Source of the DNA: a virus
Length of the DNA: 64,000 bases
Strand: one strand, 5' to 3'
Virus record (IMG/VR): IMGVR_UViG_3300020577_010320
Under the pieces are notes generated by a model. The model searched no databases and was not told the DNA's origin. It worked only from the letters and a program-made list of their open reading frames with translations. Positions 1,454-16,119 of the stretch are shown piece after piece (the stretch's first letter is position 1; every line of letters starts with the position of its first letter). A program made the translations under genes and the position numbers.

Positions 1454-1454
1454 T

Positions 1455-1745: not shown

Positions 1746-1748
1746 CGA

Positions 1749-2072: not shown

Positions 2073-2077
2073 CGACG

Positions 2078-2398
2078 TCACCCCTCCTCGTCGAGGACGA
2101 ACAACTCGTCGAAGGGTCCCTCGCATTGTGAGTCCGAGTCGCAGCCTCCCGGCAGAAGAGCCCAAACCCGGCACAGCTCGGCGCAAACGAAGTCGCCAGT
2201 CCGAACGACGAGATACCGCTTCACCATCGCACACGCTCCGTAGGCGCAGACCTCGCGGTACATAGTACCGTAACGCCAGAACCCCTCTACGATGTCGTGC
2301 GGATAGTGCAGTTCTGCGTCAGGGTAGGCGAAAGGCGCCATCTCATTGTAGTAGCACCAACAGTCGACGTCGGATCGACCGACCGTACAGCAGGTCAT
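2078..2398 (-). CDS. tandem-array small protein, LPG...ELFxYDEEG-tail family
   Basis: ends ...WALLPGGCDSDSQCEGPFDELFVLDEEG*; GTGATGA junction. Confidence 0.65.
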   Translation of the reverse strand: MTCCTVGRSDVDCWCYYNEMAPFAYPDAELHYPHDIVEGFWRYGTMYREVCAYGACAMVKRYLVVRTGDFVCAELCRVWALLPGGCDSDSQCEGPFDELFVLDEEG

Positions 2399-2649
2399 CA
2401 CCCCTCCTCGTCATAGACAAACAATTCCCCGCGCATGGATCCACGACACATCCGAGGCAGCAGGTTGAGCAGTACACCGGTCGGCGAAGAGCGAAACTCC
2501 TTACGCACACACTCCTGGCTCGAAAGGGGTAAATACACGAGGTGATCGCTCGTCGCCATGTGAATGCGAGTCGTCTGGCCGAACTTTTTGTAGCAGACGT
2601 AGACTCCGATCGAGAACCGTCCCCGGCCCAAGTCGAACGGCTTATTCAT
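2398..2649 (-). CDS. tandem-array small protein, LPG...ELFxYDEEG-tail family
   Basis: ends ...LNLLPRMCRGSMRGELFVYDEEG*. Confidence 0.6.
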   Translation of the reverse strand: MNKPFDLGRGRFSIGVYVCYKKFGQTTRIHMATSDHLVYLPLSSQECVRKEFRSSPTGVLLNLLPRMCRGSMRGELFVYDEEG

Positions 2650-2858
2650 CACCCCTCCTCGTCGTGAACGTAAAGGTCGGCGTACCCAGGCATCAAGCGC
2701 CACATGACGTGGTCGGCGAGTCTGTTGAGTGACACGTCGATTACATACGCTACGCACCGCGTGTCTGGCGGGCACTCACCGGCGACGGAGTCTATAACGC
2801 CACCACGGTGCCCCCGTGTGTGGACGAATCTGATCAAGACGTGGTAACGCACGGTCAC
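2649..2858 (-). CDS. tandem-array small protein, LPG...ELFxYDEEG-tail family
   Basis: ends ...WRLMPGYADLYVHDEEG*. Confidence 0.6.
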   Translation of the reverse strand: MTVRYHVLIRFVHTRGHRGGVIDSVAGECPPDTRCVAYVIDVSLNRLADHVMWRLMPGYADLYVHDEEG

Positions 2859-3145
2859 CCCTCCTCGTCGAACACGAACAACTCTCGGAGCGTGTCCCGG
2901 TCCCAGTTCGGCCTAACGCCGCCTGGCAGGTTCAGCCACACGCGTTGGTCGTCTGGGTACACGCACTGCAGCGTAGTAAGTATTTGGGGCTCGCAGTCGA
3001 TAGATGCGTCCGGGTGACGGTGTACAGCCCAGTAGATCGGTTCAACGGGTATCGTCGATGCGAACGCCGCAACCTCGACGTAGTCCGGGGTGACTACGAT
3101 TACTCGTCGCATATAACGGCGGAGTAGGTAGTTGTACACGGTCAC
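2855..3145 (-). CDS. tandem-array small protein, LPG...ELFxYDEEG-tail family
   Basis: ends ...WLNLPGGVRPNWDRDTLRELFVFDEEG*. Confidence 0.6.
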   Translation of the reverse strand: MTVYNYLLRRYMRRVIVVTPDYVEVAAFASTIPVEPIYWAVHRHPDASIDCEPQILTTLQCVYPDDQRVWLNLPGGVRPNWDRDTLRELFVFDEEG

Positions 3146-3396
3146 CCCTCCTCGTCGTGGATGTACAACTCGTTCTCGTACACACCGTGCCGGCGAACGC
3201 CTGCAGCACCTGGCAGCTTCGCGTACCACCCCACCGGCGTTTGGGGTGTACCGAGGAAGCGGTTGATGTGCGTCTTGATGAGACGCCTCCCGTGTGCGTA
3301 CGTCCAAAACGCACCCAGCTCATATGCGTCTACGTGGATCACGTCCGTGTAGTATTCGCGCGAGGGGCCCCGGCTCACGACGAGCATCAGCTTCAT
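3142..3396 (-). CDS. tandem-array small protein, LPG...ELFxYDEEG-tail family
   Basis: ends ...WYAKLPGAAGVRRHGVYENELYIHDEEG*; ATGA overlap with upstream non-family gene. Confidence 0.6.
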   Translation of the reverse strand: MKLMLVVSRGPSREYYTDVIHVDAYELGAFWTYAHGRRLIKTHINRFLGTPQTPVGWYAKLPGAAGVRRHGVYENELYIHDEEG

Positions 3397-3650
3397 ACAT
3401 CCTCCAGGTCGACGCCGTCCCACAGCTCCTTGACGTCCACCGAGAACACCCCGGAGACGCCGGTGATCGCAGCCACGTGCGCCATGTCCGCCCGCCCGTG
3501 AACCAGCCCGCAGTCCAGCACCTCGTCGACCGTCATGCCGGCCTTCGTCAGGCGGCTCACGACGCCGGCCATCTTCTCCCGCATGAACGCCGCCTCTACG
3601 AGTACGCGGACGTCCTTGACGTCCCCCGACGCCTTACGCTTCTTCGCCAC
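3393..3650 (-). CDS. hypothetical small protein (non-family insert in array)
   Basis: 85-aa ORF; GTG start with AGGAG 6 nt upstream; no DEEG tail. Confidence 0.5.
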   Translation of the reverse strand: MAKKRKASGDVKDVRVLVEAAFMREKMAGVVSRLTKAGMTVDEVLDCGLVHGRADMAHVAAITGVSGVFSVDVKELWDGVDLEDV

Positions 3651-3660
3651 GGCGACTCCT

Positions 3661-3690
3661 AAAAAGAAAAACCGTCCCGGAGGACGGTGT
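3661..3690 (-). terminator. rho-independent terminator (minus strand)
   Basis: ACCGTCC-tccg-GGACGGT hairpin followed by TTTTTCTTTTT on minus strand, directly after 3729..3947. Confidence 0.6.
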
Positions 3691-3728
3691 GTTCTGCCGC
3701 AACCATAATGACAGTTTGGGGCCGCGTG

Positions 3729-3947
3729 TTAAACGACCCGCACGTACCTACCCCTACGCCCGTCCCAGCACTCGCGGGTGATCGTCAAGCTGGCCCCGCC
3801 CTTGACCAGCCGTCTGAGCAACTCCTCGGCGTCAGCCTTGGACGCCTGCGCCTCGCCGTTGGCGGGGAATCGGTAATCGGCCCCGGTACGGTCCTTGCCG
3901 TGGACGACCCACCGGTCCGGTAGGCTCACCTCGTTGTGCTTAGCCAT
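3729..3947 (-). CDS. hypothetical small protein (non-family insert)
   Basis: 72-aa ORF MAKHNEVSLPDRW...; followed by terminator. Confidence 0.5.
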   Translation of the reverse strand: MAKHNEVSLPDRWVVHGKDRTGADYRFPANGEAQASKADAEELLRRLVKGGASLTITRECWDGRRGRYVRVV

Positions 3948-3950
3948 CGC

Positions 3951-4168
3951 TCACCCTTCTTCGTCCCATTCGAACAGTGTGAACCCGGTCGGCATTTTCA
4001 GCCACACGGCGGTCCACTCCCACTGACGCCTGCCGCCGTCGATTATGGTTATGCGGTTCGTACGGTTGCAGTACAGCGGGCGTTCTAGACTACACCAGTA
4101 CCCGTCCACACTCGCCGAGATCGAGTGCGGGGTGTTCGGGTACTCTACGTGCCAGAGCCGCGTCAAGT
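3951..4168 (-). CDS. tandem-array small protein, LPG...ELFxYDEEG-tail family
   Basis: ends ...WLKMPTGFTLFEWDEEG*. Confidence 0.55.
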
Positions 4169-4371
4169 CAACCCTCCTCGTCCAATACGAACAGCTCACC
4201 GGGGCGTTCTGGACTCCACCCGGGAAGACGGTACCACAAGTGTTGGTCGAAGTACTTCGCTGTGCGGAAATTGAACCCCACAGTAAGGGCCACGTGACTG
4301 TCCTGCACGCACGACGGGCGCGACGCCCGCAACTCAAACGCGCACCAGTACCGCTCGATATTGCAAAACAT
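4168..4371 (-). CDS. tandem-array small protein, LPG...ELFxYDEEG-tail family
   Basis: 67 aa MFCNIERYW...WYRLPGWSPERPGELFVLDEEG*; length matches overlap-start. Confidence 0.65.
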   Translation of the reverse strand: MFCNIERYWCAFELRASRPSCVQDSHVALTVGFNFRTAKYFDQHLWYRLPGWSPERPGELFVLDEEG

Positions 4372-4595
4372 CACCCCTCCGCGTCCCAAGTGAACAGGTC
4401 GCCGTAGTTTGGCAGGCTGGTCCACACGACCACCCAGGACTGAACCCAGGATCCTTCGATAATACTCCTACGGAATACGTCTAACGCGTCCAAGTCACGA
4501 AACACTACCGGCACCGGTGAAGTGTACGGTTTGGGGATGAACGCGCACCACCCGACGTGGTAGGCGTTGTAAAACTTGATTAGGCGGCTACACAC
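4371..4595 (-). CDS. tandem-array small protein, LPG...ELFxYDEEG-tail family
   Basis: ends ...WTSLPNYGDLFTWDAEG*. Confidence 0.6.
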   Translation of the reverse strand: MCSRLIKFYNAYHVGWCAFIPKPYTSPVPVVFRDLDALDVFRRSIIEGSWVQSWVVVWTSLPNYGDLFTWDAEG

Positions 4596-4598
4596 GGT

Positions 4599-4790
4599 TC
4601 AGCCATCCTCGTCCAATACGAACAACTCACTAATCCACCGCTTCGTCCACCCTGGTAGTGAGCGCCACAAGAGCTGGTCGTTCGCGTTCGAATTCAGGTA
4701 GCGAAAGTCAAGTCCAACAACGTCAAAACAGTGACCGTTGCGGTCCGCCAGGGGGCAACAATCGCAGTTCCGTGACATGTAACACACCAT
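4599..4790 (-). CDS. tandem-array small protein, LPG...ELFxYDEEG-tail family
   Basis: 63 aa MVCYMS...WRSLPGWTKRWISELFVLDEDG*. Confidence 0.65.
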   Translation of the reverse strand: MVCYMSRNCDCCPLADRNGHCFDVVGLDFRYLNSNANDQLLWRSLPGWTKRWISELFVLDEDG

Positions 4791-5047
4791 CACCCCTCCC
4801 AGTCGTAAACGAACAGTTCCGCCTCGTCCCCCCATCGGTCGAGGTAGTCGAACCCGCTGCCGCCGGGGAGAGACGTCCATACGCGCAAGAACTCACCCGG
4901 ATGGGCCCACTCTCCGCCCACGACCGTAGTACGGAGGCGACCGTAAAACCCCGTCGGGAGGAGTGTCACTTCGTGCACCAGAGCCACATACCAGTTACCC
5001 ACGTCGGGCGTGTAGTGGCGCTCCACGTATTCGAAGACGCGGGCCAT
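4790..5047 (-). CDS. tandem-array small protein, LPG...ELFxYDEEG-tail family
   Basis: ends ...WTSLPGGSGFDYLDRWGDEAELFVYDWEG*. Confidence 0.6.
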   Translation of the reverse strand: MARVFEYVERHYTPDVGNWYVALVHEVTLLPTGFYGRLRTTVVGGEWAHPGEFLRVWTSLPGGSGFDYLDRWGDEAELFVYDWEG

Positions 5048-5286
5048 CACCCTTCCTCATCGAGTACGAACAGTTCCCGTAAGTCTCTGAACCCAGGCAG
5101 GTTCCAATACAAGTCGTCAGTCCAACCGTCGTCGTCGAATCTACAGTTAGCCACAGACTCGAGGCTGACGAGAAACGTTATCGGCTGCGAGTGTCCGAAC
5201 GCGGACACCCGGAACAACACGCCCACATTTGCGTACCCGCCGGCGCAACGGCGTAAGTCCTCCACTACGGCTGGGAGCAGAGTCAT
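5047..5286 (-). CDS. tandem-array small protein, LPG...ELFxYDEEG-tail family
   Basis: ends ...WNLPGFRDLRELFVLDEEG*. Confidence 0.6.
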   Translation of the reverse strand: MTLLPAVVEDLRRCAGGYANVGVLFRVSAFGHSQPITFLVSLESVANCRFDDDGWTDDLYWNLPGFRDLRELFVLDEEG

Positions 5287-5588
5287 CATCCCTCCTCATC
5301 GAGTACGAACAAAGAAGCGTGTTGCGGCGAACAGGCGACGCCGCCCGGCAGCATGTGCCACAACTTCGTGTCTTCATACGCCTCCGCCGGCTCGGATAAA
5401 TCCTCCGAGAGAAGCCCTTTGGGAGTCACCACCCTGCGCCACCCGACGTAGCCCGAACTGCGGACCACTCTGTACACCCCGGCGCCTCGCGCCAGCGGGC
5501 ACGTCGTCACGACCAGGTGCCACTCGTACCACGCCGGGTTCGGTCTGTCGACGGCGACGTGACGGTAGTCGTAGGGCCACTGCACCAC
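5286..5588 (-). CDS. tandem-array small protein, LPG...ELFxYDEEG-tail family
   Basis: ends ...WHMLPGGVACSPQHASLFVLDEEG*. Confidence 0.6.
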   Translation of the reverse strand: MVQWPYDYRHVAVDRPNPAWYEWHLVVTTCPLARGAGVYRVVRSSGYVGWRRVVTPKGLLSEDLSEPAEAYEDTKLWHMLPGGVACSPQHASLFVLDEEG

Positions 5589-5819
5589 TCACCCCTCCTC
5601 GTCGTAAGTGAACAACTCGTCAGGGCGGGACGGGCGCCAACCCGGTAACGCCCGCCACAAACGATGCGACTCCGGACTCCAACCCGCACGACCCTCGTCG
5701 CTGCGATCGAGCGCGGCGACGACGCCGCCCAGGACAATGACGTCCTCCATGTCAATGCGGTGCCCGTCGGCCCGGTAGACGTACCAATGCGACGAGCCGC
5801 GTTCCATACGTTTGACCAT
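5589..5819 (-). CDS. tandem-array small protein, LPG...ELFxYDEEG-tail family
   Basis: ends ...WRALPGWRPSRPDELFTYDEEG*. Confidence 0.6.
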   Translation of the reverse strand: MVKRMERGSSHWYVYRADGHRIDMEDVIVLGGVVAALDRSDEGRAGWSPESHRLWRALPGWRPSRPDELFTYDEEG

Positions 5820-6019
5820 CACCCCTCCGCGTCGAAGACGAACAGCTCGTCCAGGGCGTCAAAACTCCAACCCGGTAACAGCGACCACAGCTCGCCCCGG
5901 GTTGCGGTATAACCCCACCGGACGTGCGGCGGGAAGATGATGAGGGCGAACCTGGAATCATCGAACGAATCGATCAGGCGAACCGAACGCATCGTTCGTT
6001 CCATGTAGTACGGGGTCAT
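5819..6019 (-). CDS. tandem-array small protein, LPG...ELFxYDEEG-tail family
   Basis: ends ...WSLLPGWSFDALDELFVFDAEG*. Confidence 0.6.
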   Translation of the reverse strand: MTPYYMERTMRSVRLIDSFDDSRFALIIFPPHVRWGYTATRGELWSLLPGWSFDALDELFVFDAEG

Positions 6020-6216
6020 CACCCCTCCCCGTCGAACTGATACAACTCCGCATAGTTCGGCATCGAGTCCCACACGTTACTAGCCGTGTACCTCTCCGTG
6101 TACACACTCAACGTCCGCCCGCGGTGCGGGACGTCGCCGTTGTACGCCGTGACCAAGATGATCCGCCCGCCGGCGTCGCTGCGGCGGGCGGTGCAAACGA
6201 GCTCCGTCGTAACCAT
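6019..6216 (-). CDS. tandem-array small protein, LPG...ELFxYDEEG-tail family
   Basis: ends ...WDSMPNYAELYQFDGEG*. Confidence 0.55.
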   Translation of the reverse strand: MVTTELVCTARRSDAGGRIILVTAYNGDVPHRGRTLSVYTERYTASNVWDSMPNYAELYQFDGEG

Positions 6217-6410
6217 CACCCCTCCTCGTCGCAAATGAACAAGTCACTAAGAGGATACAGACGCCAACCCGGTAAAAGCGACCACAGCACCTTATCTCTG
6301 GAGTACGCGTCCATGAGAGACGGGTACTGACGCCTGACCGAATCGACGCGTCCACACTGGTAACAGCACACCACGTAACCGTCACGCTCACGCGTCATGT
6401 ACTGTAGCAT
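6216..6410 (-). CDS. tandem-array small protein, LPG...ELFxYDEEG-tail family
   Basis: ends ...WSLLPGWRLYPLSDLFICDEEG*. Confidence 0.6.
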   Translation of the reverse strand: MLQYMTRERDGYVVCCYQCGRVDSVRRQYPSLMDAYSRDKVLWSLLPGWRLYPLSDLFICDEEG

Positions 6411-6619
6411 CACCCCTCCCCATCGAACACGAACAACTCGTCACAAGTTCCACCACCTCGGTTGTAGTCGCCCGGCAGGTTTTCCCACCAGACGGGGTAG
6501 TCCGGCAAGTGCGGGTAATACACTACGTCGACCTCCGCCAAACCCACGTACAACTCGACGCGCGGGGATGCTGACACGGAAACGTCGTAACACCTAACAA
6601 GGTCTTTGAATTGTCGCAT
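6410..6619 (-). CDS. tandem-array small protein, LPG...ELFxYDEEG-tail family
   Basis: ends ...WENLPGDYNRGGGTCDELFVFDGEG*. Confidence 0.6.
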   Translation of the reverse strand: MRQFKDLVRCYDVSVSASPRVELYVGLAEVDVVYYPHLPDYPVWWENLPGDYNRGGGTCDELFVFDGEG

Positions 6620-6831
6620 CACCCCTCCTCGTCGTAGGTGTACAGCGACTGGGCGTCGGGCAGAAGACACATCACGCCGCCCACGTCCAACAGTTTTTCG
6701 TTCGGCGCCCACACGACCATCACATCCCCGACCCTACGCCGCCAGTCGCAGTCGCTAATACGCACGACCCAGCCGGACCACCCCATCAACAAGGAGTCCA
6801 GGACCAACTCGCGCTGCAGGCTATACGTCAT
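6619..6831 (-). CDS. tandem-array small protein, LPG...ELFxYDEEG-tail family
   Basis: ends ...LLPDAQSLYTYDEEG*; TAATG overlap with HAD gene stop. Confidence 0.55.
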   Translation of the reverse strand: MTYSLQRELVLDSLLMGWSGWVVRISDCDWRRRVGDVMVVWAPNEKLLDVGGVMCLLPDAQSLYTYDEEG

Positions 6832-7352
6832 TACCTGTCGACCTCGCCGAATCGGGTGGACAGGGCGCACAACTTCTCCTCCACCGCGCGACTAACGGTA
6901 GAGATCGAAACCCAGTCGGACAGGCGGTGCGGCTCCAACGACCAGTGAATGAACGTCCCGCCGCGGGCCTCGAACCCCTCCTTGTGTCGGAGGTCGTCGT
7001 CGATCAGTACGGCCCTCGGGTGGGCGACCTGATACTTCGACACACAGAGCATGAAGTTGTCGCGCAGCTCGGGTCGGTGCTCAGCGACCCAGGCGGTCTT
7101 ACCCTCGAACACACCCCGCCGAGCACCGGGAGCCGACGGGATCTTGGTCAGCAAGAACGCGGACTCGCCGAAGTCTTGATTGACGGACCCGAGCCAGTCG
7201 CGGATTACCGGGACGAGGTACCGGTTGCCCGGAGCCGGCGGTAAGGAGGACCAGAACTTCTTGCTGGTGTACCCCTTGGTCGCCATCCTGTCCTTCAAAC
7301 GCTGGTGAGTGTCGACAAGAACTCCGTCCATGTCGATGTACACGGTGAACAC
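6831..7352 (-). CDS. HAD-superfamily 5'(3')-deoxyribonucleotidase-like hydrolase
   Basis: MFTVYIDMDGVLVD (DxDGV motif I) ... VLIDDDLRHKEGFEARGGTFIHW; 173 aa. Confidence 0.6.
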   Translation of the reverse strand: MFTVYIDMDGVLVDTHQRLKDRMATKGYTSKKFWSSLPPAPGNRYLVPVIRDWLGSVNQDFGESAFLLTKIPSAPGARRGVFEGKTAWVAEHRPELRDNFMLCVSKYQVAHPRAVLIDDDLRHKEGFEARGGTFIHWSLEPHRLSDWVSISTVSRAVEEKLCALSTRFGEVDR

Positions 7353-7874
7353 GGAAATGCCCTCCAGTTGCGATTAAACGGACTGTAACGGACGATGTGT
7401 GGTCAAGACGACCAGGAACCCATCTCAAGCCCTGGACGTCTTAAACGCGAAATATGGAGAAACGCGGTAGGAGTGGGTTGGGCGGGGGTGGAGTGGACTA
7501 CGGCGAATCCGATCGGCTGAGCTAGGTTGCGTCCTGTTTAAGATTAAACGCCCCAGGATCGACGATCTGGGTACTGGATGAAATCTGAGTCACCCTCGTG
7601 GGCTCAGTGTCTTAAAACGCGTTTAATCGCAAAACTGGGGGAGTTCCTTTATAAAGGATCTCAGTCGGTTTTTGGCGATTTTCCGTAACTCTGTAGTGTC
7701 TTTTTCCTGCTTTGAGGAAAAAGACACGGCTTTCTTCTTCTTAACCATATTTCTTAAGAAGAAGAAGAAGAAGAAAGACAGCTGCAATATATCGACGGCT
7801 CCGACGCCCCTTTTTCGACCGTCTTCGACCGGAGTGTTTACCATCTTGGTAAACTTAGGATTCTCACCAATTCC
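7353..7874. promoter_or_regulatory. AT-rich structured intergenic island with TTAAACG iterons, perfect hairpins and (AAG)n
   Basis: GATTAAACG/CGTTTAATC copies at ~7372, 7441, 7548, 7612, 7621; 12-bp perfect hairpin GTGTCTTTTTCC...GGAAAAAGACAC at 7696-7727; TTCTTCTTCTTAA...TTAAGAAGAAGAA hairpin; (AAG)6; local GC far below flanks. Confidence 0.5.
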
Positions 7875-8114
7875 TCATCCTTCCTGGTCATGAGTGTACA
7901 GCTCGTGCGGATCGTCACGACCGCCTGGCAGTAATGCAGCAAAACCTCGAGGTCCGACACCGTAACCGTATTCGAGTGCGCTGGCGACCCGCGGTGGTAC
8001 CCTCCCCACCCTGCCGCCAAGAACCCCAGGCTGGTCGCTGTCGAACCGGCGCACCTCGACTCCGTCGTAGAACCTGCTCATGCCATATGACTTGGACACG
8101 TCATCCCTCTTCAT
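7875..8114 (-). CDS. tandem-array small protein, LPG...ELFxYDEEG-tail family
   Basis: ends ...ALLPGGRDDPHELYTHDQEG*. Confidence 0.55.
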   Translation of the reverse strand: MKRDDVSKSYGMSRFYDGVEVRRFDSDQPGVLGGRVGRVPPRVASALEYGYGVGPRGFAALLPGGRDDPHELYTHDQEG

Positions 8115-8343
8115 CGTAGACGAACAACTCGCACCACTGGTCCCACCATTGTTGTGAGTCGGGCATCATTTGACAGCTGCGGGCAGCGTTCCCCGGCAAC
8201 GCCTTCCAAACCGACAAGTCTTGGTTCGGTGTGACGGCCTGTGGGTGGCGCACCGTACTCAGGATGTGGCAGCCACGCGACAGCAGATACACCGCCGTCC
8301 CACCGTACTGTCGGTGTAAGGCTACGAACTGATCCACTGTCAC
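8101..8343 (-). CDS. tandem-array small protein, LPG...ELFxYDEEG-tail family
   Basis: ends ...WKALPGNAARSCQMMPDSQQWWDQWCELFVYDEEG*. Confidence 0.6.
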   Translation of the reverse strand: MTVDQFVALHRQYGGTAVYLLSRGCHILSTVRHPQAVTPNQDLSVWKALPGNAARSCQMMPDSQQWWDQWCELFVYDEEG

Positions 8344-8741
8344 CCCTCCTCGTCCCAAACGAACAAGGCTAGCACCCACTCCGTCGTCGACCCGCCCACG
8401 TGGTCTGTGGGGAGAGTGATCCAGAAGTCGACTGGAACACCTTTCGGGCGTTCTATCCAACCCGCATAGCTGACTCGACCGGTCGCTTTGTTGTGTCGGT
8501 CGAGGCAGACGCCGTCGTCGCCGCGCAGCGGACGCAGGTATTGCGGCGACCGGCCGCCGTCTACCTCGTCCCACACGAACAGCTCGTCCGGCGGGGCCCA
8601 CCCACGCGACCGGCGGTACCCTCCCGGCAGTTCTAGGGTTGACGCGTTTGCGTCGTGCTCACACACCCAGCTGGTGACGCCGTTAATGTTGCAGGTGTAG
8701 ACGCCCTCTTCGACCCGATGCATTTCGAATTCTGCAGTCAT
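8340..8741 (-). CDS. two-unit in-frame fusion of the LPG...DEEG-tail family
   Basis: internal ...LELPGG...DELFVWDEVDGG... plus terminal ...WITLPTDHVGGSTTEWVLALFVWDEEG*. Confidence 0.6.
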   Translation of the reverse strand: MTAEFEMHRVEEGVYTCNINGVTSWVCEHDANASTLELPGGYRRSRGWAPPDELFVWDEVDGGRSPQYLRPLRGDDGVCLDRHNKATGRVSYAGWIERPKGVPVDFWITLPTDHVGGSTTEWVLALFVWDEEG

Positions 8742-8986
8742 CACCCCTCCCCGTCGTTTACGTAGAGTTCGCAGAACGCGCTATCTGCGCCGCCCGCCAT
8801 CGCGCGACTGCGGTCAGCGTCGCCGGGTAGTAGCATCCAGAACGCGTCTCCCAGATGACTCACGTGCGGGTACATGACGCTTGCCTCCGGTGCGTCATCG
8901 GTGTACACCACCGAAACGAACGGGACGCCGTACTCACACACGTAGTACTCCCTCACCACGAAGTCGATGGTCTTGATGGGCATCAT
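8741..8986 (-). CDS. tandem-array small protein, LPG...ELFxYDEEG-tail family
   Basis: ends ...WMLLPGDADRSRAMAGGADSAFCELYVNDGEG*; ATGATGA junction. Confidence 0.6.
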   Translation of the reverse strand: MMPIKTIDFVVREYYVCEYGVPFVSVVYTDDAPEASVMYPHVSHLGDAFWMLLPGDADRSRAMAGGADSAFCELYVNDGEG

Positions 8987-9384
8987 CCCTCCTCGTCCCA
9001 CGCGAACAGTTCGTCGGCCTCATTGTTGCCGCCGTACCTCGGGAGTAGCATCCACAGCTCGTCGGGGACCCCGCCCGGCCTGAGGCAGCCCCCCACGAGG
9101 TCGGACCATTCCCACACCACGTTGTATCGATACAGATCGACCCCGACGTCGCTTCTGTCCGGCCACACGTACGTCAGCGAGGCGCCGCCGTCGACCTCGT
9201 CCCACACGAACAGGTCGTCCCGTCTCCCGTAACCTGGTAGGAGGCCGACGACGACGATCGATTGTTGACGGTGTGTACTTTTGTTGAGGTCGTAGCACAC
9301 CACGGTCCGGCTACAGTATGTTGGACCGCCGCCATGTGCCACCACCCCGACCCTGGTCCTGGTCAAGATGAACTCGGTCGCCAT
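8983..9384 (-). CDS. two-unit in-frame fusion of the LPG...DEEG-tail family
   Basis: internal ...LLPGYGRRDDLFVWDEVDGG... plus terminal ...WMLLPRYGGNNEADELFAWDEEG*. Confidence 0.6.
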   Translation of the reverse strand: MATEFILTRTRVGVVAHGGGPTYCSRTVVCYDLNKSTHRQQSIVVVGLLPGYGRRDDLFVWDEVDGGASLTYVWPDRSDVGVDLYRYNVVWEWSDLVGGCLRPGGVPDELWMLLPRYGGNNEADELFAWDEEG

Positions 9385-9614
9385 CATCCCTCCTCGTCGA
9401 AGACGAACAACTCGTCACAAGTCGACGGGCTGCTCCGACTACAACCGCCCGGCAACAGCTGCCACCACTCGTTCGGCTCCCAGTCCTTCAGGTGTAGGTA
9501 CGCGACGTGGTTGCCGGTCACCGCGTTCAAATCAACTTCCACGACCGGCGTGTCGTAAAACAGCGGCCGGGTGTAAATCCTTACCAACGCGTAACTCGAT
9601 TCGGTCGCCATCAT
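9384..9614 (-). CDS. tandem-array small protein, LPG...ELFxYDEEG-tail family
   Basis: ends ...WQLLPGGCSRSSPSTCDELFVFDEEG*. Confidence 0.6.
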   Translation of the reverse strand: MMATESSYALVRIYTRPLFYDTPVVEVDLNAVTGNHVAYLHLKDWEPNEWWQLLPGGCSRSSPSTCDELFVFDEEG

Positions 9615-9904
9615 CCCTCCTCGTCTAGGACGAACAGCGTCGCTTTGTCGGGGAGCAGGTACCACAGTCGCTGGTGGTCGGCCAGCCGACACGGCCGGTC
9701 CAGCTCGCCGAGCCAGGGCCTTGTCCGCCACTGACACCGGTCGTTCGACTGCAGTAAGCGGTACGCCCCGTCGTACAGCGGCGCAGACTTGGACCCGCAG
9801 GACAGCATGACCCGAAGCGTCAGCGGTCGACCGGGGCACGGCAGCGGCCTGAAGTCGATCCACCACTTAGGGCTACGGTATTTGGTCAGGTCGAACACGG
9901 TCAC
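9611..9904 (-). CDS. tandem-array small protein, LPG...ELFxYDEEG-tail family
   Basis: ends ...WYLLPDKATLFVLDEEG*. Confidence 0.6.
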   Translation of the reverse strand: MTVFDLTKYRSPKWWIDFRPLPCPGRPLTLRVMLSCGSKSAPLYDGAYRLLQSNDRCQWRTRPWLGELDRPCRLADHQRLWYLLPDKATLFVLDEEG

Positions 9905-10113
9905 CCATCCTTGTCGTAGATGAATAGTTCGTTCGAGGTGTAAAACGTGTCGTTCATCGTGTCGTGCGCGACGACGCGCAGCTGAGGCAGCGCCTGCCAC
10001 AGGTAGTCGTACTCGACGGGGATCGGCGGGACGACCTGCACCGTCTTGTTGGTCTTGGTACACGACAGCCACACGCCGTCCGTATACCTGTCGGCGAAGT
10101 CGAACACGGTCAC
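9901..10113 (-). CDS. tandem-array small protein, LPG...ELFxYDEEG-tail family
   Basis: ends ...WQALPQLRVVAHDTMNDTFYTSNELFIYDKDG*. Confidence 0.55.
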   Translation of the reverse strand: MTVFDFADRYTDGVWLSCTKTNKTVQVVPPIPVEYDYLWQALPQLRVVAHDTMNDTFYTSNELFIYDKDG

Positions 10114-10433
10114 CCCTCCTCGTCGTGGACGTAGAGCTCGGCTTCGCACTCGATACTGCTACACTTTCCGGCCCAACCCCCGGGCAGGTTCATCCACACG
10201 GCGACGAACGCGTCGTCAGACACGACGGGTTCGTGCGTCACGTGACTATCCTTAAACCACTCGGAGTCGACGAAGAAGCCGCTGACGGTCGGGGGGTCGC
10301 GGTACCAGCGTCGGGGGCGGTCGTTCGGTGAGACCCACTGGACGCCGATGTCCAGGTCGCCGTCCTCGTACGGCGGAGACAGGTCGAGTCTGAACACCCG
10401 CAAACTTTCGTCGGGTAAGCGGGGTACCATCAT
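10110..10433 (-). CDS. tandem-array small protein, LPG...ELFxYDEEG-tail family
   Basis: ends ...WMNLPGGWAGKCSSIECEAELYVHDEEG*. Confidence 0.6.
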   Translation of the reverse strand: MMVPRLPDESLRVFRLDLSPPYEDGDLDIGVQWVSPNDRPRRWYRDPPTVSGFFVDSEWFKDSHVTHEPVVSDDAFVAVWMNLPGGWAGKCSSIECEAELYVHDEEG

Positions 10434-10666
10434 CCCTCCTCGTCGTAAGTGAAGAGTTCGCTGCCGCACGGCAACCGAATGCGCGTCAGCATCAGCTGAC
10501 GGATGCCGATGTTGAAGCCTTCTTCGAGACACAACCGGATCTGGACGCTGTGCGAAATCCTCAGCCAGTCCCTCAAGAGTCTAGTGTATGCCTCAGGCCA
10601 AAGCCGCACGTCGACGTATCGAAACCCAGGCCACGGCGCGGATTCCCACGGTTTCGGCTTCATCAC
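10430..10666 (-). CDS. tandem-array small protein, LPG...ELFxYDEEG-tail family
   Basis: ends ...RLPCGSELFTYDEEG*. Confidence 0.55.
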   Translation of the reverse strand: MMKPKPWESAPWPGFRYVDVRLWPEAYTRLLRDWLRISHSVQIRLCLEEGFNIGIRQLMLTRIRLPCGSELFTYDEEG

Positions 10667-11001
10667 CCTTCCTCGTCATGGACGTAGAGTTCGGCGTCGA
10701 TCAGCCGACACTCGTCGTATATACCGCGGTCGGATCCAGGCAGTAGGTTCCACAGCCCCCAGTGTTGCCGGTTTATCCCGCAACACACGAAGTTTGAGAC
10801 GCCGTCGGGCGACACGCTGTCGCCGCCCGGGAACACCTGGCCCAGCCGTTCGCCGTTGTACCACGTCTTCGGCGTACCGTCCTCACCCAACCACTGGACG
10901 CCGACCTTGGCGTCGTCGTCATCGAATTCGTTAAATTCCGGGTCCCAGACTTCGTGTCTAAACACCCGCATTCTCACGTGCGGCGGCGGTTTCGTCATCA
11001 T
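10663..11001 (-). CDS. tandem-array small protein, LPG...ELFxYDEEG-tail family
   Basis: ends ...WNLLPGSDRGIYDECRLIDAELYVHDEEG*. Confidence 0.6.
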   Translation of the reverse strand: MMTKPPPHVRMRVFRHEVWDPEFNEFDDDDAKVGVQWLGEDGTPKTWYNGERLGQVFPGGDSVSPDGVSNFVCCGINRQHWGLWNLLPGSDRGIYDECRLIDAELYVHDEEG

Positions 11002-11288
11002 CCTTCCTCGTCGTGGACGTAGAGTTCGGAGTCGAAGGACGGGAACTCGGCGTACTGCGGGAGCAGCAGCCACACGCGGACGGCCTCCGGATCCAGGCCG
11101 ACGTACCGGTTGGTGGTGCGTGTCCCGCCCAGGCGCACAGCGACGCCCGACCAGAGCGTGTCGTTGGATATCTGGTCGTTCTGGTGTTTAGTCGCGCGTA
11201 TCAGAACTTGGCGGGGACCGATCGTCCTGTGGTGAAAGTACTCGAACACAAACCGCCTGTTGGCGGTCGTTATCCGCTCGTACATCAT
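10998..11288 (-). CDS. tandem-array small protein, LPG...ELFxYDEEG-tail family
   Basis: ends ...WLLLPQYAEFPSFDSELYVHDEEG*. Confidence 0.6.
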   Translation of the reverse strand: MMYERITTANRRFVFEYFHHRTIGPRQVLIRATKHQNDQISNDTLWSGVAVRLGGTRTTNRYVGLDPEAVRVWLLLPQYAEFPSFDSELYVHDEEG

Positions 11289-11294
11289 ACGCGG

Positions 11295-11549
11295 TCACCT
11301 CATGTAGGCGGCGTAGACCTCGATCAGCTCGAGCGCGGTGCGCTCGTCCATGTAGTACGGCTCCTGGACAGGCTCGGGGTTGACGATCGTCTTGACGGAT
11401 CGGCGGCGGACGAACCCGCCCACCAGACACGCCACGCAGACGGACAGGACCGTCGCGGCGAGCGTCGTCTCCCAGACGCCAGACGACGCTAAGTACGACG
11501 CGATCACACTAAACACGGCATCCTCCATTGGCTGTGGTTTGAAACTCAA
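11295..11549 (-). CDS. small membrane protein (non-family insert in array)
   Basis: 84 aa with hydrophobic segment ATVLSVCVACLVGGFV; no DEEG tail. Confidence 0.45.
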   Translation of the reverse strand: MSFKPQPMEDAVFSVIASYLASSGVWETTLAATVLSVCVACLVGGFVRRRSVKTIVNPEPVQEPYYMDERTALELIEVYAAYMR

Positions 11550-11788
11550 CCTTCTTCATCGTAGACGTACAGCTCGTCGCAACCTTCCTGGTACGCGTCC
11601 GGCCCGGCGCGGGCCAGGAACCAGCCGGGTAGGAGCCATACAAGGTCGTATTCGTGGGGCGGTACACACATACAATCCAAGCAATCCAGGTCGATCCACT
11701 CCGTCACCTCACCGTTGCGGGGGTCTCGAACCACCTCAACCATCGCAACTCTCGCCCGCCGCAGGCGCTTAACTGGGTCGGCCATCAC
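11546..11788 (-). CDS. tandem-array small protein, LPG...ELFxYDEEG-tail family
   Basis: ends ...WLLPGWFLARAGPDAYQEGCDELYVYDEEG*. Confidence 0.6.
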   Translation of the reverse strand: MMADPVKRLRRARVAMVEVVRDPRNGEVTEWIDLDCLDCMCVPPHEYDLVWLLPGWFLARAGPDAYQEGCDELYVYDEEG

Positions 11789-12000
11789 CCCTCCTCGTCA
11801 CGGACGAACAGTTCGGCTTCTTGGCAACTCCGAAGAGTGCCGGGAAGTCCCCATCCGGGCAGTTGACGAACGAACACCCGGTGGTCGTAACTCATGAGTC
11901 TGTCGTCTATCAAACTTATTGAGTGCAGAATAGCCGGACCGCCCGTGGAGCCGATGTACGTCGTACTCAGCCCCACGCGTATCACTTCGACCGTCATCAC
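11785..12000 (-). CDS. tandem-array small protein, LPG...ELFxYDEEG-tail family
   Basis: ends ...RQLPGWGLPGTLRSCQEAELFVRDEEG*. Confidence 0.6.
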   Translation of the reverse strand: MMTVEVIRVGLSTTYIGSTGGPAILHSISLIDDRLMSYDHRVFVRQLPGWGLPGTLRSCQEAELFVRDEEG

Positions 12001-12191
12001 CCCTCCTCGTCGTAGGTGAACAACTCACTGAACTGTCTGTCCCCATCGGAACGGACGCACGGCAGTTGGTCCCACAAGATCCAGAAGTCGTTTCCAGCCG
12101 AACCACCCCTGCCGACGATCAATTTGTCGCTATCGGACCAGGCCCACCACGCGCCGCCGCACCGTCGCAACCGCCGATAAGCTGGTCTCAC
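11997..12191 (-). CDS. tandem-array small protein, LPG...ELFxYDEEG-tail family
   Basis: ends ...WDQLPCVRSDGDRQFSELFTYDEEG*. Confidence 0.6.
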   Translation of the reverse strand: MRPAYRRLRRCGGAWWAWSDSDKLIVGRGGSAGNDFWILWDQLPCVRSDGDRQFSELFTYDEEG

Positions 12192-12703
12192 GGTACACCC
12201 CTCGGTACTGTAGTCGGGGCTATCACTCCCTGAGCCCTTGCGTCGTTTTCCCGCAGCCGTTCGAACACCCGACGCGTAGCGGCCGGGTCACCGCCGGTGT
12301 ACAAAGCCCAGGCGAAATAATGGCGGCACGCCTTGCGCCATCTGGAGTCGGGTTGCCATCCGGAGTCGCCGACGTACGGAGAGTCCGCGCCCTGAACCAG
12401 ACCGTACACTGGTACGACCAGGTAGTCGCCCAGGTGCTTGCCGTACGTGTAGTACTGGTAGCCGTTGAACCCGTACCACATCGCGTCCAGGCACGGGGCC
12501 TGGCCCCAAGAGTCCACGGTCGCCAGGCAGCCACGCCACTCGGCGACCGCGCGGGCGACGTGGATCCGCCCCAAGCGCACGGTCTTCTCGGGCGTGTCGC
12601 CGTGGAGCGGGAGTACAGCTCGGGACGCCGTCAGGATCATCTCGGCCGCGTCTCGGACGCGGAAGTCGTCGACGCCCAGCAGGAACACCAGGATCGCCGT
12701 CAT
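12188..12703 (-). CDS. hypothetical protein; paralog of 37765..38256
   Basis: MTAILVFLLGVDDFRVRDAAEMIL... vs MYIVVSVLVVALGADDFRTREAATSAL... shared N-terminal architecture and internal motifs. Confidence 0.5.
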   Translation of the reverse strand: MTAILVFLLGVDDFRVRDAAEMILTASRAVLPLHGDTPEKTVRLGRIHVARAVAEWRGCLATVDSWGQAPCLDAMWYGFNGYQYYTYGKHLGDYLVVPVYGLVQGADSPYVGDSGWQPDSRWRKACRHYFAWALYTGGDPAATRRVFERLRENDARAQGVIAPTTVPRGVP

Positions 12704-12719
12704 GTCAACCTCCTTGTGG

Positions 12720-12917
12720 TCAGCCGTCCTCGTCCAACACGAACACCTCGTACCCTGCGTCGCGGCCGGGCAGAGAGTCTATGATTCGGTTGAACCCCCC
12801 AAGCTCCCGGTCGTTAAACCTCCATGACGCAGTGCGTAAGTGGATCAGGCGTGCGGGGCGGCCGCTGTGAAGGACGGTCAGGTACGTGTAACTCTCACGC
12901 AGCACGAACCAAGTCAT
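12720..12917 (-). CDS. tandem-array small protein, LPG...ELFxYDEEG-tail family
   Basis: ends ...IDSLPGRDAGYEVFVLDEDG*. Confidence 0.55.
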   Translation of the reverse strand: MTWFVLRESYTYLTVLHSGRPARLIHLRTASWRFNDRELGGFNRIIDSLPGRDAGYEVFVLDEDG

Positions 12918-13147
12918 CACCCCTCCTCGTCGTAGGTGAAGAGTTCTCCCACAGCCCGACGGCCGTACCACCCAGGCAGGCGTTGCCACACCAGTCTGGT
13001 CCGATCATCTAAGAAGCCCAGACGACCGCCGTACACATTGTCGCACGTTAAGAACGCGTAGTACTTGTTCGTCCCAGGAACTAACAAATCGACGAACGCG
13101 TTGTCCCGGCCCATGCCGAACGCCTTGCCGGTGTAGGCGGTCATCAT
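12917..13147 (-). CDS. tandem-array small protein, LPG...ELFxYDEEG-tail family
   Basis: ends ...WQRLPGWYGRRAVGELFTYDEEG*. Confidence 0.6.
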   Translation of the reverse strand: MMTAYTGKAFGMGRDNAFVDLLVPGTNKYYAFLTCDNVYGGRLGFLDDRTRLVWQRLPGWYGRRAVGELFTYDEEG

Positions 13148-13374
13148 CCCTCCTTGTCGTAGGTGAACAGGTCGTCGTTGGTCGGCAGGTCGCTGTACAC
13201 GGTGCCCACGATCTGGACGTGGTCGTCGTACGGCTTCAGGCCGATCGTCTCCGTGTGCCCGACCTGCTCGTACCGCCCGACGCCGTCGCCTCGGTACCGG
13301 CGTACGACGACGCACGTCTTACCATACCAGTAGGGCAGACGACGCAGCGCGATCACCGGTGAGTACGCGCTCAT
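13144..13374 (-). CDS. tandem-array small protein, LPG...ELFxYDEEG-tail family
   Basis: ends ...YSDLPTNDDLFTYDKEG*. Confidence 0.55.
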   Translation of the reverse strand: MSAYSPVIALRRLPYWYGKTCVVVRRYRGDGVGRYEQVGHTETIGLKPYDDHVQIVGTVYSDLPTNDDLFTYDKEG

Positions 13375-13604
13375 CACCCCTCCCCGTCGTAGGCGAACAG
13401 TTCGCGATCCCTGGTACACCCGGAACGCACGTCGAAGCCGCCGGGCAGTCTGTCTACGAACGAGTAAACGTCGTCGGTCAGAACCCTGACCGGCTGCAGC
13501 GTCACAAGGGGCCCGAGCCCCATCCAAGTATCACCGATCCTGCGATACACGCACATCTGGTTGGACGACGCCCACCGGCGTAGCGATAACGGTTCGGCCA
13601 TCAC
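13374..13604 (-). CDS. tandem-array small protein, LPG...ELFxYDEEG-tail family
   Basis: ends ...VDRLPGGFDVRSGCTRDRELFAYDGEG*. Confidence 0.6.
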   Translation of the reverse strand: MMAEPLSLRRWASSNQMCVYRRIGDTWMGLGPLVTLQPVRVLTDDVYSFVDRLPGGFDVRSGCTRDRELFAYDGEG

Positions 13605-13840
13605 CCCTCCTCATCGTAGGTGAATAGCTCGTCGCGCCCCAACGTAATGAGTCTCCCGTCACTGCGCCGACGATTGCTGCCTGGAAGCTTGTCGATTAGA
13701 GTTCGCAACGAATCAGCGATCCACCGCTGCTCCACGTTCTGTAGTCTTAGCCCCTGGCACGTGTGGAGTGTACAGTCCTGCCAGTACCAGTGTACGTCGA
13801 TCGCGTCGTACATCCCTCTGGTTACACTTATGTACATCAC
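13601..13840 (-). CDS. tandem-array small protein, LPG...ELFxYDEEG-tail family
   Basis: ends ...IDKLPGSNRRRSDGRLITLGRDELFTYDEEG*. Confidence 0.6.
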   Translation of the reverse strand: MMYISVTRGMYDAIDVHWYWQDCTLHTCQGLRLQNVEQRWIADSLRTLIDKLPGSNRRRSDGRLITLGRDELFTYDEEG

Positions 13841-14106
13841 CCCTCCTCGTCGTAAGTAAAGAGTTCACACACCGGCCCGAAGTCGCCGCCTGGCAGGCGA
13901 CACCATACCTGGCGGAGTTCGTAGCTCACGTAGCGGACGTCGGGGCCGAAGTCTACACGGGCAGGCGACCAGGTTAGGTAGGATTCAGCCACTCCCAAGT
14001 CCACGCGCGGGAGCGTGGGCGGCTTCGTGTGGCGTATTAGGACCCAGCGTCTGTGCTCAGTAATGCCGCACCTCCCACATGATGTAGTTCCGGCCGGGTA
14101 GGACAC
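13837..14106 (-). CDS. tandem-array small protein, LPG...ELFxYDEEG-tail family
   Basis: ends ...WCRLPGGDFGPVCELFTYDEEG*; 5' end uncertain (overlaps next ORF). Confidence 0.55.
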   Translation of the reverse strand: MSYPAGTTSCGRCGITEHRRWVLIRHTKPPTLPRVDLGVAESYLTWSPARVDFGPDVRYVSYELRQVWCRLPGGDFGPVCELFTYDEEG

Positions 14107-14620
14107 CCAGGCACCTATCGAACACGGACAGTTCCAGCACGTGGTCCGGGTACAGGTCCAACAGGTCCTGCACGTCGTCCCACCCGTTCTCGTTCAGCAC
14201 GCCCTTGAGCTTGGCGACCGCGGCGACCCCGCTCAGGGTCGGTTCGGGCTTGAGCATGATCTGGCGCCAGTTGTACCCGAGCGGCGGACGCGTGTGGCCG
14301 ACGATCTCCAACCCGTAAGTAGTCCTCACGACGTCCCCCTGCCACAGGGTCGGGTACAGGGCCGACACCATCGCGCTGATATTGACGCCGGCCGACCGGA
14401 ACTCGGGCGAGTCGGCGACCTGAGAGACGTCGGCGGTGGGGACGTTGAGACGGAGGGGCCCGCCCGGCTTGAGAGTCCGGACGCCCCAGAGGTCGTAGCG
14501 TGCTGCCGCCGCGGACTTTCCCCAAGCATCGACGGAGAAGAACTGCTCGATCGTGTTACCGAGCAAGCCCGCGGACAGCAGGCGGTACATCGTGGTCTTG
14601 TCTGTGATCGGACTGCGCAT
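14057..14620 (-). CDS. hypothetical protein
   Basis: 187-aa ORF, no recognisable motif; possible later start at MYRLL (14590). Confidence 0.4.
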   Translation of the reverse strand: MRSPITDKTTMYRLLSAGLLGNTIEQFFSVDAWGKSAAAARYDLWGVRTLKPGGPLRLNVPTADVSQVADSPEFRSAGVNISAMVSALYPTLWQGDVVRTTYGLEIVGHTRPPLGYNWRQIMLKPEPTLSGVAAVAKLKGVLNENGWDDVQDLLDLYPDHVLELSVFDRCLGVLPGRNYIMWEVRHY

Positions 14621-14819
14621 CTACCTGTTCCTGAATCAACAACGCGTCGCGCGGCGTCCGGTAAAGGACGACGTTCCACGCCGCTCTCTCGGCCTCGAGC
14701 CTTACACGCCGTTTTTCGGCTTGGCGGTCGGACTCGACGAATAAAAAGCACGCGAGGGCCAGGCATGTCAGCCAGGACCCCGCGTGCGCCAGGTAGTGCG
14801 TAACGACCTCGGGCGTCAT
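14556..14819 (-). CDS. small membrane protein (hypothetical)
   Basis: MTPEVVTHYLAHAGSWLTCLALACFLFV...; ATG directly after upstream TAG; overlaps 14057..14620 by ~35 nt so one of the two may be wrong. Confidence 0.35.
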   Translation of the reverse strand: MTPEVVTHYLAHAGSWLTCLALACFLFVESDRQAEKRRVRLEAERAAWNVVLYRTPRDALLIQEQVDAQSDHRQDHDVPPAVRGLAR

Positions 14820-14820
14820 G

Positions 14821-15228
14821 CTAGACCGGCGTCTGAGTTGTGGCGCGGGTCCGGACCCTACCCAGGACGTCCTCCACATACCGGCGTCCCCGACGCTGCA
14901 GCCGGTTGAGTTGCGAATCCACCTGCGTCTGCGGGATCCGTAACGCTCCCTTGTGGCCCATGTACGGCGCAGTCACCAGACGGCAGACGGCGCTCCGCCA
15001 TCCGTTGACGATCAACCCTCCCACCCGGGCGCGGATGTGCGACAACTTCATCCTGTCGTCGACGCGCCAGTCGTGGACGACGCGGTCGACGATGCTCGGA
15101 ACGTTCTCGGCGTACCAGGCGTCGGCGTACGCCTCGAGCCGGCGTAACAACTCGGCTTCACTGGTTCTAAGGAACGAGTCCATCCGTTCCGCGGCCTTTT
15201 CGAGGGGCGTCATTACTTCTCCTCTCAA
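14821..15228 (-). CDS. hypothetical protein, 'ADAWY' motif; paralog of 15656..16003
   Basis: LEAYADAWYAENVPSIVDRVVHDW vs AEFADAWYTDVGPQLLRTALSA. Confidence 0.5.
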   Translation of the reverse strand: MRGEVMTPLEKAAERMDSFLRTSEAELLRRLEAYADAWYAENVPSIVDRVVHDWRVDDRMKLSHIRARVGGLIVNGWRSAVCRLVTAPYMGHKGALRIPQTQVDSQLNRLQRRGRRYVEDVLGRVRTRATTQTPV

Positions 15229-15266
15229 CGGTACAGACTCTAGACTGTAGTTTTGCGGAGCTCACA

Positions 15267-15578: not shown

Positions 15579-15655
15579 GAGCGCCCCCTGTAATTGAAGG
15601 TGTCAGTTGGTCGCCAGGTAGTGCGTAACGACCTGGGACATCCTACCCCTACGGT

Positions 15656-16003: not shown

Positions 16004-16082
16004 GTCCCACCCCTGTGTAGATTGTTTCCCTCGGTTCACGGAATGATGACAGTCAGGGGTCGGCGATTTAGTGCATCGACGC

Positions 16083-16115: not shown

Positions 16116-16119
16116 GGAG

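Follow-up and report, generated by a model that had tools for sequence, protein, structure and literature searches.

In-frame fusions of neighbouring units in a small-gene array of a large uncultivated phage

What becomes of a conserved C-terminal tail when the gene that it closes is joined to the next one? Two double-length genes on the minus strand of a 64,000-nt stretch of virus DNA (IMG/VR record IMGVR_UViG_3300020577_010320; the whole stretch is called the window below) raise this question. The window is part of a large uncultivated phage, and its first 30 kb hold, on the minus strand, a dense, lineage-specific array of small genes whose products share such a tail. In an original prediction, made from the sequence alone, the genes at 8340-8741 and 8983-9384 were described as natural in-frame fusions of two array units. 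Our analysis confirms this description: each gene has two matches to the unit profile in one frame, double the usual length and a continuous coding signature. We call the gene that begins at 8983 in the window F1 and the one that begins at 8340 F2 (Table 1).

Two double-length genes among the array units

An ordinary unit of the array ends in …W..LPG…ELFxxDEEG, followed by TGA. The bodies of the units (60-110 aa) have diverged so far that alignment holds only at their ends, and the P of LP, the D and the final G are the invariant residues of the family. A scan of the open reading frames (ORFs) for the ending hydrophobic-x-x-D-x-x-G returned 74 ORFs from the minus strand and not a single one from the plus strand. 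We built a profile hidden Markov model (HMM) from 71 single units only and used it in a six-frame scan of the whole window. Copies were confined to positions 1 to about 30,100, with nothing credible elsewhere in the window, which holds at least 77 genes of the family. The array leaves the window at position 1. Locus L136 shows its continuation, and more units of the same phage are found in L131 and L136, which brings the family to more than 90 members.

F1 and F2 were the only ORFs of the window in which the six-frame scan found two unit copies. The single-unit HMM matched each of them twice in the same frame (domain E-values of 7e-8 and 1e-7 in F1, and of 7e-7 and 1e-6 in F2), and in the six-frame scan each of the four copies had an E-value between 7e-5 and 1.5e-3. 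Stop-to-stop spacing was 401 nt for both genes, compared with 190-335 nt for ordinary units. Both have the same layout, namely a unit body, LPG…D/E-LFVWDE, VDGG, a second body, W..LP…LFxWDEEG and the stop. The translation of F1 reads ...LLPGYGRRDDLFVWDEVDGGASLTY...LLPRYGGNNEADELFAWDEEG and that of F2 ...ELPGGYRRSRGWAPPDELFVWDEVDGGRSPQY...TLPTDHVGGSTTEWVLALFVWDEEG. Their terminal tails are canonical (LFAWDEEG and LFVWDEEG), and in their internal tails LP, LF and D are retained and acidic residues and Gly come next (DEVDGG).

At a normal junction of the array, GAGGAGGG is followed by TGA, and the ATG or GTG of the next gene either overlaps this stop or is at most about 8 nt away; the coupling form can also be written GAGGAGGGG-TGA-TG. 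Both fusion genes carry this combination of Shine-Dalgarno (SD) sequence, stop and start at their 3' ends (GAGGAGGGATGATG and GAGGAGGGGTGAcaGTG). The internal tails lack a stop, GGAGG and any start codon close by, and their Gly codons are GGC GGC, the codon preferred in the background. It is the absence of the SD-stop-start element at the internal tails that defines F1 and F2 as fusions. The two genes read ...DEVDGG... where other units have ...DEEG*/MM..., so that VDGG takes the place of EG plus MM, in agreement with the claim that an in-frame linker has replaced the stop/restart element.

The codon-position signature of coding DNA ran unbroken and in the same frame across both junctions. GC contents at the three codon positions (GC1/GC2/GC3, frame 0) were about 0.6/0.45/0.75-0.86 in all four halves, and 0.61/0.44/0.77 in the pooled single units. 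Neither an in-frame stop nor a slippery motif of the form X XXY YYZ, as expected for programmed recoding, was found in the junction sequence. The predicted RNA fold of the 101 nt round each junction was not more stable than that of shuffled sequence (z = 0.34 and 0.10), and a promoter and terminator scan of positions 6500-12500 gave nothing at the fusions. Judged by sequence, both genes would be translated as a single 134-aa chain.

Table 1. Positions of the fusion genes, their parts and the array features discussed in the text
Feature	Position	Strand	Description or basis
Fusion gene F1	8983..9387	minus	134 aa; 133 aa from second ATG at 9384; stop TGA 8983-8985
F1 N-terminal unit, aa 1-64	9196..9387	minus	Internal tail LLPGYGRRDDLFVWDE at end; HMM domain 1, model positions 1-53 of 55
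F1 linker VDGG (GTC GAC GGC GGC)	9184..9195	minus	Occupies site of usual EG-stop/start-MM junction
F1 C-terminal unit, aa 69-134	8986..9183	minus	Canonical terminal tail LLPRYGGNNEADELFAWDEEG; HMM domain 2
Fusion gene F2	8340..8744	minus	134 aa; 133 aa from ATG at 8741; stop TGA 8340-8342
F2 N-terminal unit, aa 1-60	8565..8744	minus	Internal tail ELPGGYRRSRGWAPPDELFVWDE at end; HMM domain 1
F2 linker VDGG (GTA GAC GGC GGC)	8553..8564	minus	Sequence; DNA alignment with F1
F2 C-terminal unit, aa 65-134	8343..8552	minus	Canonical tail ...LALFVWDEEG; HMM domain 2
Ordinary single unit between F1 and F2	8741..8986	minus	Weak tail-region similarity to 8101-8343
Ordinary single unit downstream of F2	8101..8343	minus	Unit profile and ORF
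Example of a normal junction element (GACGAGGAGGGATGATG)	9384..9401	minus	Tail codons D-E-E-G, Shine-Dalgarno sequence, TGA and overlapping ATG of F1
First array gene, 129 aa	29659..30048	minus	Unit with internal tail (LLPNRQELFVCD), then 21-aa C-terminal extension
Variant unit	28712..28958	minus	Tail ...FPRDETLFVLDVDEYAHLGG*, non-terminal; LFV-x-D-V/L-D-E-Y subtype; weak HMM match, E = 0.64
Surrounding array	1..30048	minus	78 unit copies in 76 ORFs (HMM E < 0.01); interrupted by a few unrelated genes

Common origin of F1 and F2 and the rival histories

We split both fusions after DEVDGG and compared the halves with all units. The N-terminal half of F1 had its best match in that of F2 (40% identity over 77 aligned columns) and the C-terminal half of F1 in that of F2 (41% over 66 aa), and both matches were reciprocal. 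Over their full length, F1 and F2 were collinear and 38% identical (BLASTP, E = 5e-19). The two genes agree fully in the block D-[DE]-LFVWDEVDGG, and nowhere is the pair better conserved than in the internal tail. In their DNA, the strongest repeat without gaps (8490-8589 and 9121-9220; 100 nt with 73% identity) covers the junction together with the beginning of the second body. F1 and F2 are thus paralogs, as had been proposed. The reciprocal halves, the shared junction block and the DNA repeat over the junction indicate that the fusion arose once, before the duplication.

All four fusion halves carry a W at tail position -5, a residue found there in only 3 of 72 other units. This rare LFxWDE tail means that the fused units were sister copies or that their tails were homogenised; we think that the two originally fused units were probably sister copies. 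F1 and F2 are two genes apart, and so are the body-related pairs 18466/18027, 10663/10110, 23384/22704, 4599/4168 and 1749/1208. That several related pairs are exactly two genes apart points to duplication in two-gene steps and suggests that the array grew by two-gene segmental duplications. The segment copied here was probably a fusion together with the following unit (F1 plus 8741-8986). Elsewhere in the array, the adjacent pair 22474/22247 is a recent duplicate of a single unit (65% identity).

Taken as a whole, the data are best explained by one old fusion of two units through loss of their junction, followed by duplication and divergence; we put the probability of this history at about 80%. 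The junction between two adjacent units would have been destroyed in a single event, in which a small frame-restoring change took out GGAGG and TGA together with the start codon, with VDGG left behind as the linker. Since the next gene is one frame away at a normal junction, such an event must have included a small indel. The ribosome would then read through and make one two-domain protein instead of stopping and restarting. Later the fused gene would have been duplicated, and the copies, now about 40% identical, would have retained the reading frame, the internal tail and the linker.

Several observations weigh against this history. Alignment of normal to fusion junctions gave no consistent mutational path, since the copies are about 60% diverged, and the small frame-restoring indel is something that we infer. 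The units 8741-8986 and 8101-8343 are only weakly similar, which leaves the extent of the duplicated segment uncertain. Protein searches and searches with the unit and F1+F2 profiles returned no orthologous fusion from any other genome, and the AlphaFold model of the fusion was uninformative (predicted local distance difference test score, pLDDT, 49.5). Finally, the proportion of synonymous differences (pS) in the junction block (8553-8588 and 9184-9219) was 0.14, compared with 0.65 overall and 0.86 in the terminal tails. Identical residues of F1 and F2 were encoded by identical codons in 9 of 10 cases inside the junction block and in 18 of 40 outside it (Fisher p = 0.011, from small numbers). 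Local gene conversion is the simplest reading of the low junction pS, which could also reflect a role at the nucleotide level; RNA structure does not account for it (z near 0). Either way, the identity of the junction becomes weaker as pure evidence of selection on the protein.

If the junction had been lost by accident, F1 and F2 might be neutral or decaying read-through relics in which one half or the whole gene is non-functional. We consider this unlikely. A base-composition estimate for 62% GC gives an open frame of ~70 codons a chance of about 1 in 8 to survive, and the lack of an orthologous fusion elsewhere is in keeping with a relic. Both copies, however, are open over 134 codons despite an amino-acid divergence of about 60%, and all four halves match the family profile, keep LP, LF and D and have an intact codon-position GC. 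In addition, the proportion of nonsynonymous differences between F1 and F2 (pN, 0.43) is below the overall pS, which is saturated.

The fusions could also be small polyproteins in which DEVD-GG is a processing site that frees two acidic-ended units, for example for the phage's own papain-family protease (35804-37276; Peptidase_C1, E = 2e-53). The linker VDGG lies outside the family motif and yet is identical in both diverged copies, and cleavage would restore a free acidic tail as in the other units. Papain-type enzymes prefer a hydrophobic P2 residue such as Val, and the Val of the linker would fit this general preference. On the other hand, the other genes with an internal tail differ in sequence after LFVxD, and the identity of the linker may simply come from gene conversion. 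We regard processing as a long shot.

A two-unit gene might instead be ancestral, with single units derived from it by fission through a gained stop/restart junction. The direction of change cannot be read from the two sequences alone. Homologous junctions, however, are found in more than 90 single units, among them the units of L131, L136 and L135 and every one of the 11 in a distant relative (L022). There are only two doubles, and neither has a closer relative than the other one. A single fusion is strongly preferred by parsimony, and fission is very improbable.

An error of sequencing or assembly, either an indel at the junction or a collapse between repeated tails, might have erased a real stop and restart, as the original prediction had cautioned. 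The array junctions are highly repetitive, and short-read contigs do break in this region. Nevertheless, the exact 133-aa products (from the second Met) were called in Logan assemblies of at least three other runs, and the exact F1 product was called in four public contigs. Nucleotide identity was 100% over 4249 nt in a contig of SRR32380193, 99.94% in one of SRR22317058 and 99.76% in one of SRR8942265. The last represents a slightly different strain, and every one of its 8 mismatches and 2 gaps is located outside the fusions. The same DNA and proteins are therefore present in the JGI-derived window and in independent assemblies, a variant strain among them. The junction DNA TGGGACGAGGTNGACGGCGGC occurred at 8553-8573 and 9184-9204 only, even when 3 mismatches were allowed (mean in shuffled sequence, 0.04 matches). 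Being confined to the two fusions, it is not a mis-join of ordinary junctions. Both the coding signature and the profile homology run on in frame, and because the same junction is found in two diverged paralogs, the identical error would have to have happened twice. These findings, above all the independent assemblies of at least three runs, make an artefact barely conceivable. Two independent fusions converging on one linker are just as hard to believe, since the halves are reciprocal best matches and collinear and the junction block of 12 residues is identical, with 9 of 10 codons the same.

The tail as protein motif and as translation signal

The last codons of a unit, GAC GAG GAG GGG TGA, also form the ribosome-binding site and the overlapping stop/start for the next gene. 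We examined codon use in the 74 canonical tails. The ELF codons are freely synonymous (E is encoded by GAG in 25 and by GAA in 23; L by CTG in 31, TTG in 24 and CTC in 10), and ELF is therefore selected as protein. The final Gly codon was GGG or GGA in 84% of the tails, compared with a background of 30-38%, and the stop was TGA in 74 of 74; among the large genes of the window, 8 of 10 end in TAA. The bias of the Gly codon and the universal TGA indicate selection for the SD sequence and the overlapping stop/start. Two constraints thus act on the tail: W..LPG..ELFxxD and the acidic patch are constrained at the protein level, and GAGGAGGGG-TGA-ATG is constrained as a coupling signal. A non-coding repeat array is not what we found, given the coding GC signature of 0.61/0.44/0.77 and the synonymous variation at conserved residues.

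The coupling part, GAGGAGGGG-TGA-ATG, is the portion of the tail that is lost in the fusions, and LPG…LFVWDE and the acidic residues stay. Units without a tightly coupled next gene still end in D-E-[ED]-G, with codons that do not form an SD sequence, for example GAA GAA GGT. Since the internal tails are acidic and the uncoupled units keep D-E-[ED]-G, the acidic end is also a protein feature, to which SD sequence and stop are an added nucleotide constraint. The fusions drop GGAGG-TGA-ATG and keep LPG…LFxxD with its acidic patch, which shows the tail to be in part a protein element and in part a translation signal.

Tails at internal positions were not limited to F1 and F2. The first array gene carries the motif internally with a C-terminal extension, as had been predicted; its ORF (29662-30135) was the only one in the six-frame scan with a single internal copy, LLPNRQELFVCD, followed by 21 further residues. 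The ATG of the next gene overlaps this gene by 11 nt. The tail subtype of the variant unit at 28712-28958 is shared with three L131 genes (922-1185, 1207-1536 and 1578-1901). In this sub-family, LFV(L/P)D(V/L)DE(Y/Q) and 5-20 extra residues replace the DEEG-stop, so that the tail end has diversified more than once. An acidic stretch is kept after LFVxD in the first array gene (DTAEF…), in the variant unit (DVDEYAHLGG) and in the three L131 paralogs (DVDEY…, DLDEY… and DVDEQ…, each with about 20 residues more).

The tail therefore does tolerate an internal position, where it is the best conserved part of the F1/F2 pair and where it recurs in 29659-30048, in 28712-28958 and in the three L131 genes. 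Its internal occurrence in at least seven genes argues against a strict need for a free C-terminus. This makes a C-terminal degron or strict end-tag less likely, and a structural or docking element more likely. The units had also been called modular. As a description of their architecture, the word is fair.

We infer that the internal LPG..LFVWDE has been kept as part of the fold or interaction surface of the unit and not as a free C-terminal tag, and that a fusion would behave as a covalently linked pair of units. Our best guess for the family is a role as diversified small proteins for host interaction or counter-defence; this guess of a role in host conflict derives from the interleaving of the array with RNA-repair genes.

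The fusion itself is an ordinary evolutionary accident, in which a stop was lost between tandem paralogs and the product was retained and duplicated. It is of modest interest in its own right, and its value is that of a natural control for the surrounding array; the fusions also supply experimenters with ready-made two-domain constructs. The array rather than the fusion is the unusual and more interesting object, and it merits a study of its own. Tentatively, the array might be a self-propagating cassette system, in which the ~30-35 nt of tail and junction would serve at once as protein motif, as ribosome-binding site with stop and start, and as microhomology for unequal recombination. If this doubtful proposal were true, a large phage could rapidly diversify a set of small host-interaction proteins with more than 90 members. 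Unequal recombination, which adds, removes and occasionally fuses units, would then have produced the fusions and the variants with a C-terminal extension as by-products, and continuing gene conversion between junctions would have left its trace in the low synonymous divergence at the fusion junction.

Neighbourhood, relatives and known systems

A few non-unit genes interleave with or flank the array. They encode a Thg1-like tRNA-His guanylyltransferase (19611-20501, E = 2e-30), a calcineurin-like phosphoesterase (16120-17388), a weakly matching NT5C-like nucleotidase (6831-7352) and an RNA ligase with a PHA02142 OB domain (30314-31501). The Thg1-like enzyme and phosphoesterases are embedded within the array, and the neighbourhood looks like one of RNA repair or counter-defence. 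A small ORF just upstream of the first array gene (30105-30245, minus strand; MNALRAFALSTIVSCAGCSYQK…) resembles a lipoprotein signal peptide with a putative lipobox Cys.

Further genes of the window bear on the kind of phage. A minus-strand ORF of 1457 aa (59037-63410) contains Rpb2 domain 6 and Rpb1 domains 1-2, that is, a fused beta/beta'-like RNA polymerase, and a separate minus-strand ORF of 627 aa (55257-57140) contains Rpb1 domain 5. Compared with proteins of Vibrio phage D69 and Salmonella phage Arash, the fused beta/beta' ORF shows an identity of only about 28%. This suggests a phage that branches deeply and encodes an RNA polymerase of the multisubunit type. The papain-family cysteine protease domain mentioned above, encoded on the minus strand, is unusual for a phage. 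A VWA protein is encoded elsewhere in the window. ARAGORN called a tRNA-Asn (85 nt, 25907-25991) and a tRNA-Met (58931-59000). Rfam at its gathering threshold reports no tRNA, nor anything else, in the window, and the two ARAGORN calls may be weak or atypical.

An AT-rich gap just after unit 7875-8099 contains a non-coding block of about 133 nt (7674-7808, minus strand). This block is 100% identical to a stretch of L022 (about 6272-6406) located directly after the last of its 11 units, and the flanks are about 50% identical. Two hairpins, (CTT)6/(AAG)n and GTGTCTTTTTCCT/AGGAAAAAGACAC, lie within the block, where all Logan contigs break. It is single-copy in the window and, apart from L022, absent from IMG/VR. 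The sole Rfam match was Phe-leader-like and below threshold (23 bits, compared with a gathering score of 55). As to its role, the block is a candidate small RNA, terminator or regulatory element.

Database searches returned almost nothing beyond the phage itself. The fusions and representative units had no match at E <= 1 in the curated families of Pfam-A, PHROGs and NCBIfam, and the unit profile had none among PDB sequences. An AlphaFold model of the unit, based on an alignment of 72 paralogs, reached a modest pLDDT of 69 and showed a beta hairpin at the N-terminus as well as a helix at W..LP; a Foldseek search of this model against the PDB found no fold match (best E-value 3.1). Among 5.8 billion proteins, searched with F1, the unit profile and the F1+F2 profile, we found only units of this phage or of very close relatives, and a full HMMER scan of 1.84 billion representatives with the unit profile gave the same result. 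Near-identical DNA was not found among GenBank phages.

We also searched for the junction patterns as DNA. The single-copy pattern gave only chance single matches in IMG/VR. With the two-copy patterns, searches of IMG/VR, JGI metagenomes and GTDB genomes recovered one true relative, L022 (IMGVR_UViG_3300020577_005315), which has 11 units and no fusion; its comparison with the window by tblastx gave noise. Four other loci with multiple matches (L070, L099, L113 and L038) were true CRISPR arrays, which bear no resemblance to the gene array and had no match to the unit HMM. Further units that are absent from the window, and not identical to any unit in it, were present in L135 (ERR12387326), P0029, P0015 and P0022; that of P0029 resembles unit 1208-1453 and is clearly diverged from it. 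Such non-identical units in other samples indicate that related phages with diverged versions of the array exist. The family is thus without known relatives except for the 11-unit array in one IMG/VR contig. In the literature we found no report of the tail motif or of a comparable phage gene family, apart from a review of jumbo phages (PMC7824862).

That review describes about 35 copies of a zinc ribbon in Bacillus phage G and calls them 'unprecedented' (PMC7824862). Both cases are large expansions of one small protein family within the genome of a big phage. The present family, however, numbers at least 77 genes within the window and extends beyond it, shows no recognisable fold or domain, and consists of units chained by a coupling junction.

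The internal proteins of phage T4 share a capsid-targeting sequence, which is N-terminal and is cleaved off. The array resembles them in that small, variable proteins have a short conserved peptide at one end. Unlike the T4 signal, the tail of the array units is C-terminal, and it is tolerated at internal positions.

In Cluster K mycobacteriophages, start-associated sequences (SAS), reportedly described by Pope et al. in 2011, are said to form a conserved 13-bp motif just upstream of many starts. Like the array junction, SAS are a repeated and conserved nucleotide element with a ribosome-binding site at many gene starts of one phage. They differ in that SAS precede unrelated genes and have no paralogous tail, whereas the element of the array is inherited with a gene family and encodes conserved residues.

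Translational coupling through an overlapping stop and start (ATGA or TGATG), with an SD sequence in the 3' end of the upstream gene, is known from trpE-trpD, trpB-trpA and many phage gene clusters. The array junctions, with their overlapping or near ATG or GTG, their SD-biased last codons and their invariable TGA, are of the same kind. Unlike in those systems, the junction recurs about 75 times in the same reading frame and has been deleted in the fusions. As it is copied along with the gene, the junction appears as a conserved protein tail.

Tandem-domain proteins, or 'single-chain dimers', arise by loss of the stop between adjacent paralogs. F1 and F2 conform to this route: adjacent related units were joined by loss of the intergenic signals, and the product was kept and duplicated. 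Nothing essential sets them apart, except that the lost signals were themselves coding for the conserved tail. For this reason, the fusion separates the constraint on the protein from the constraint on the RNA.

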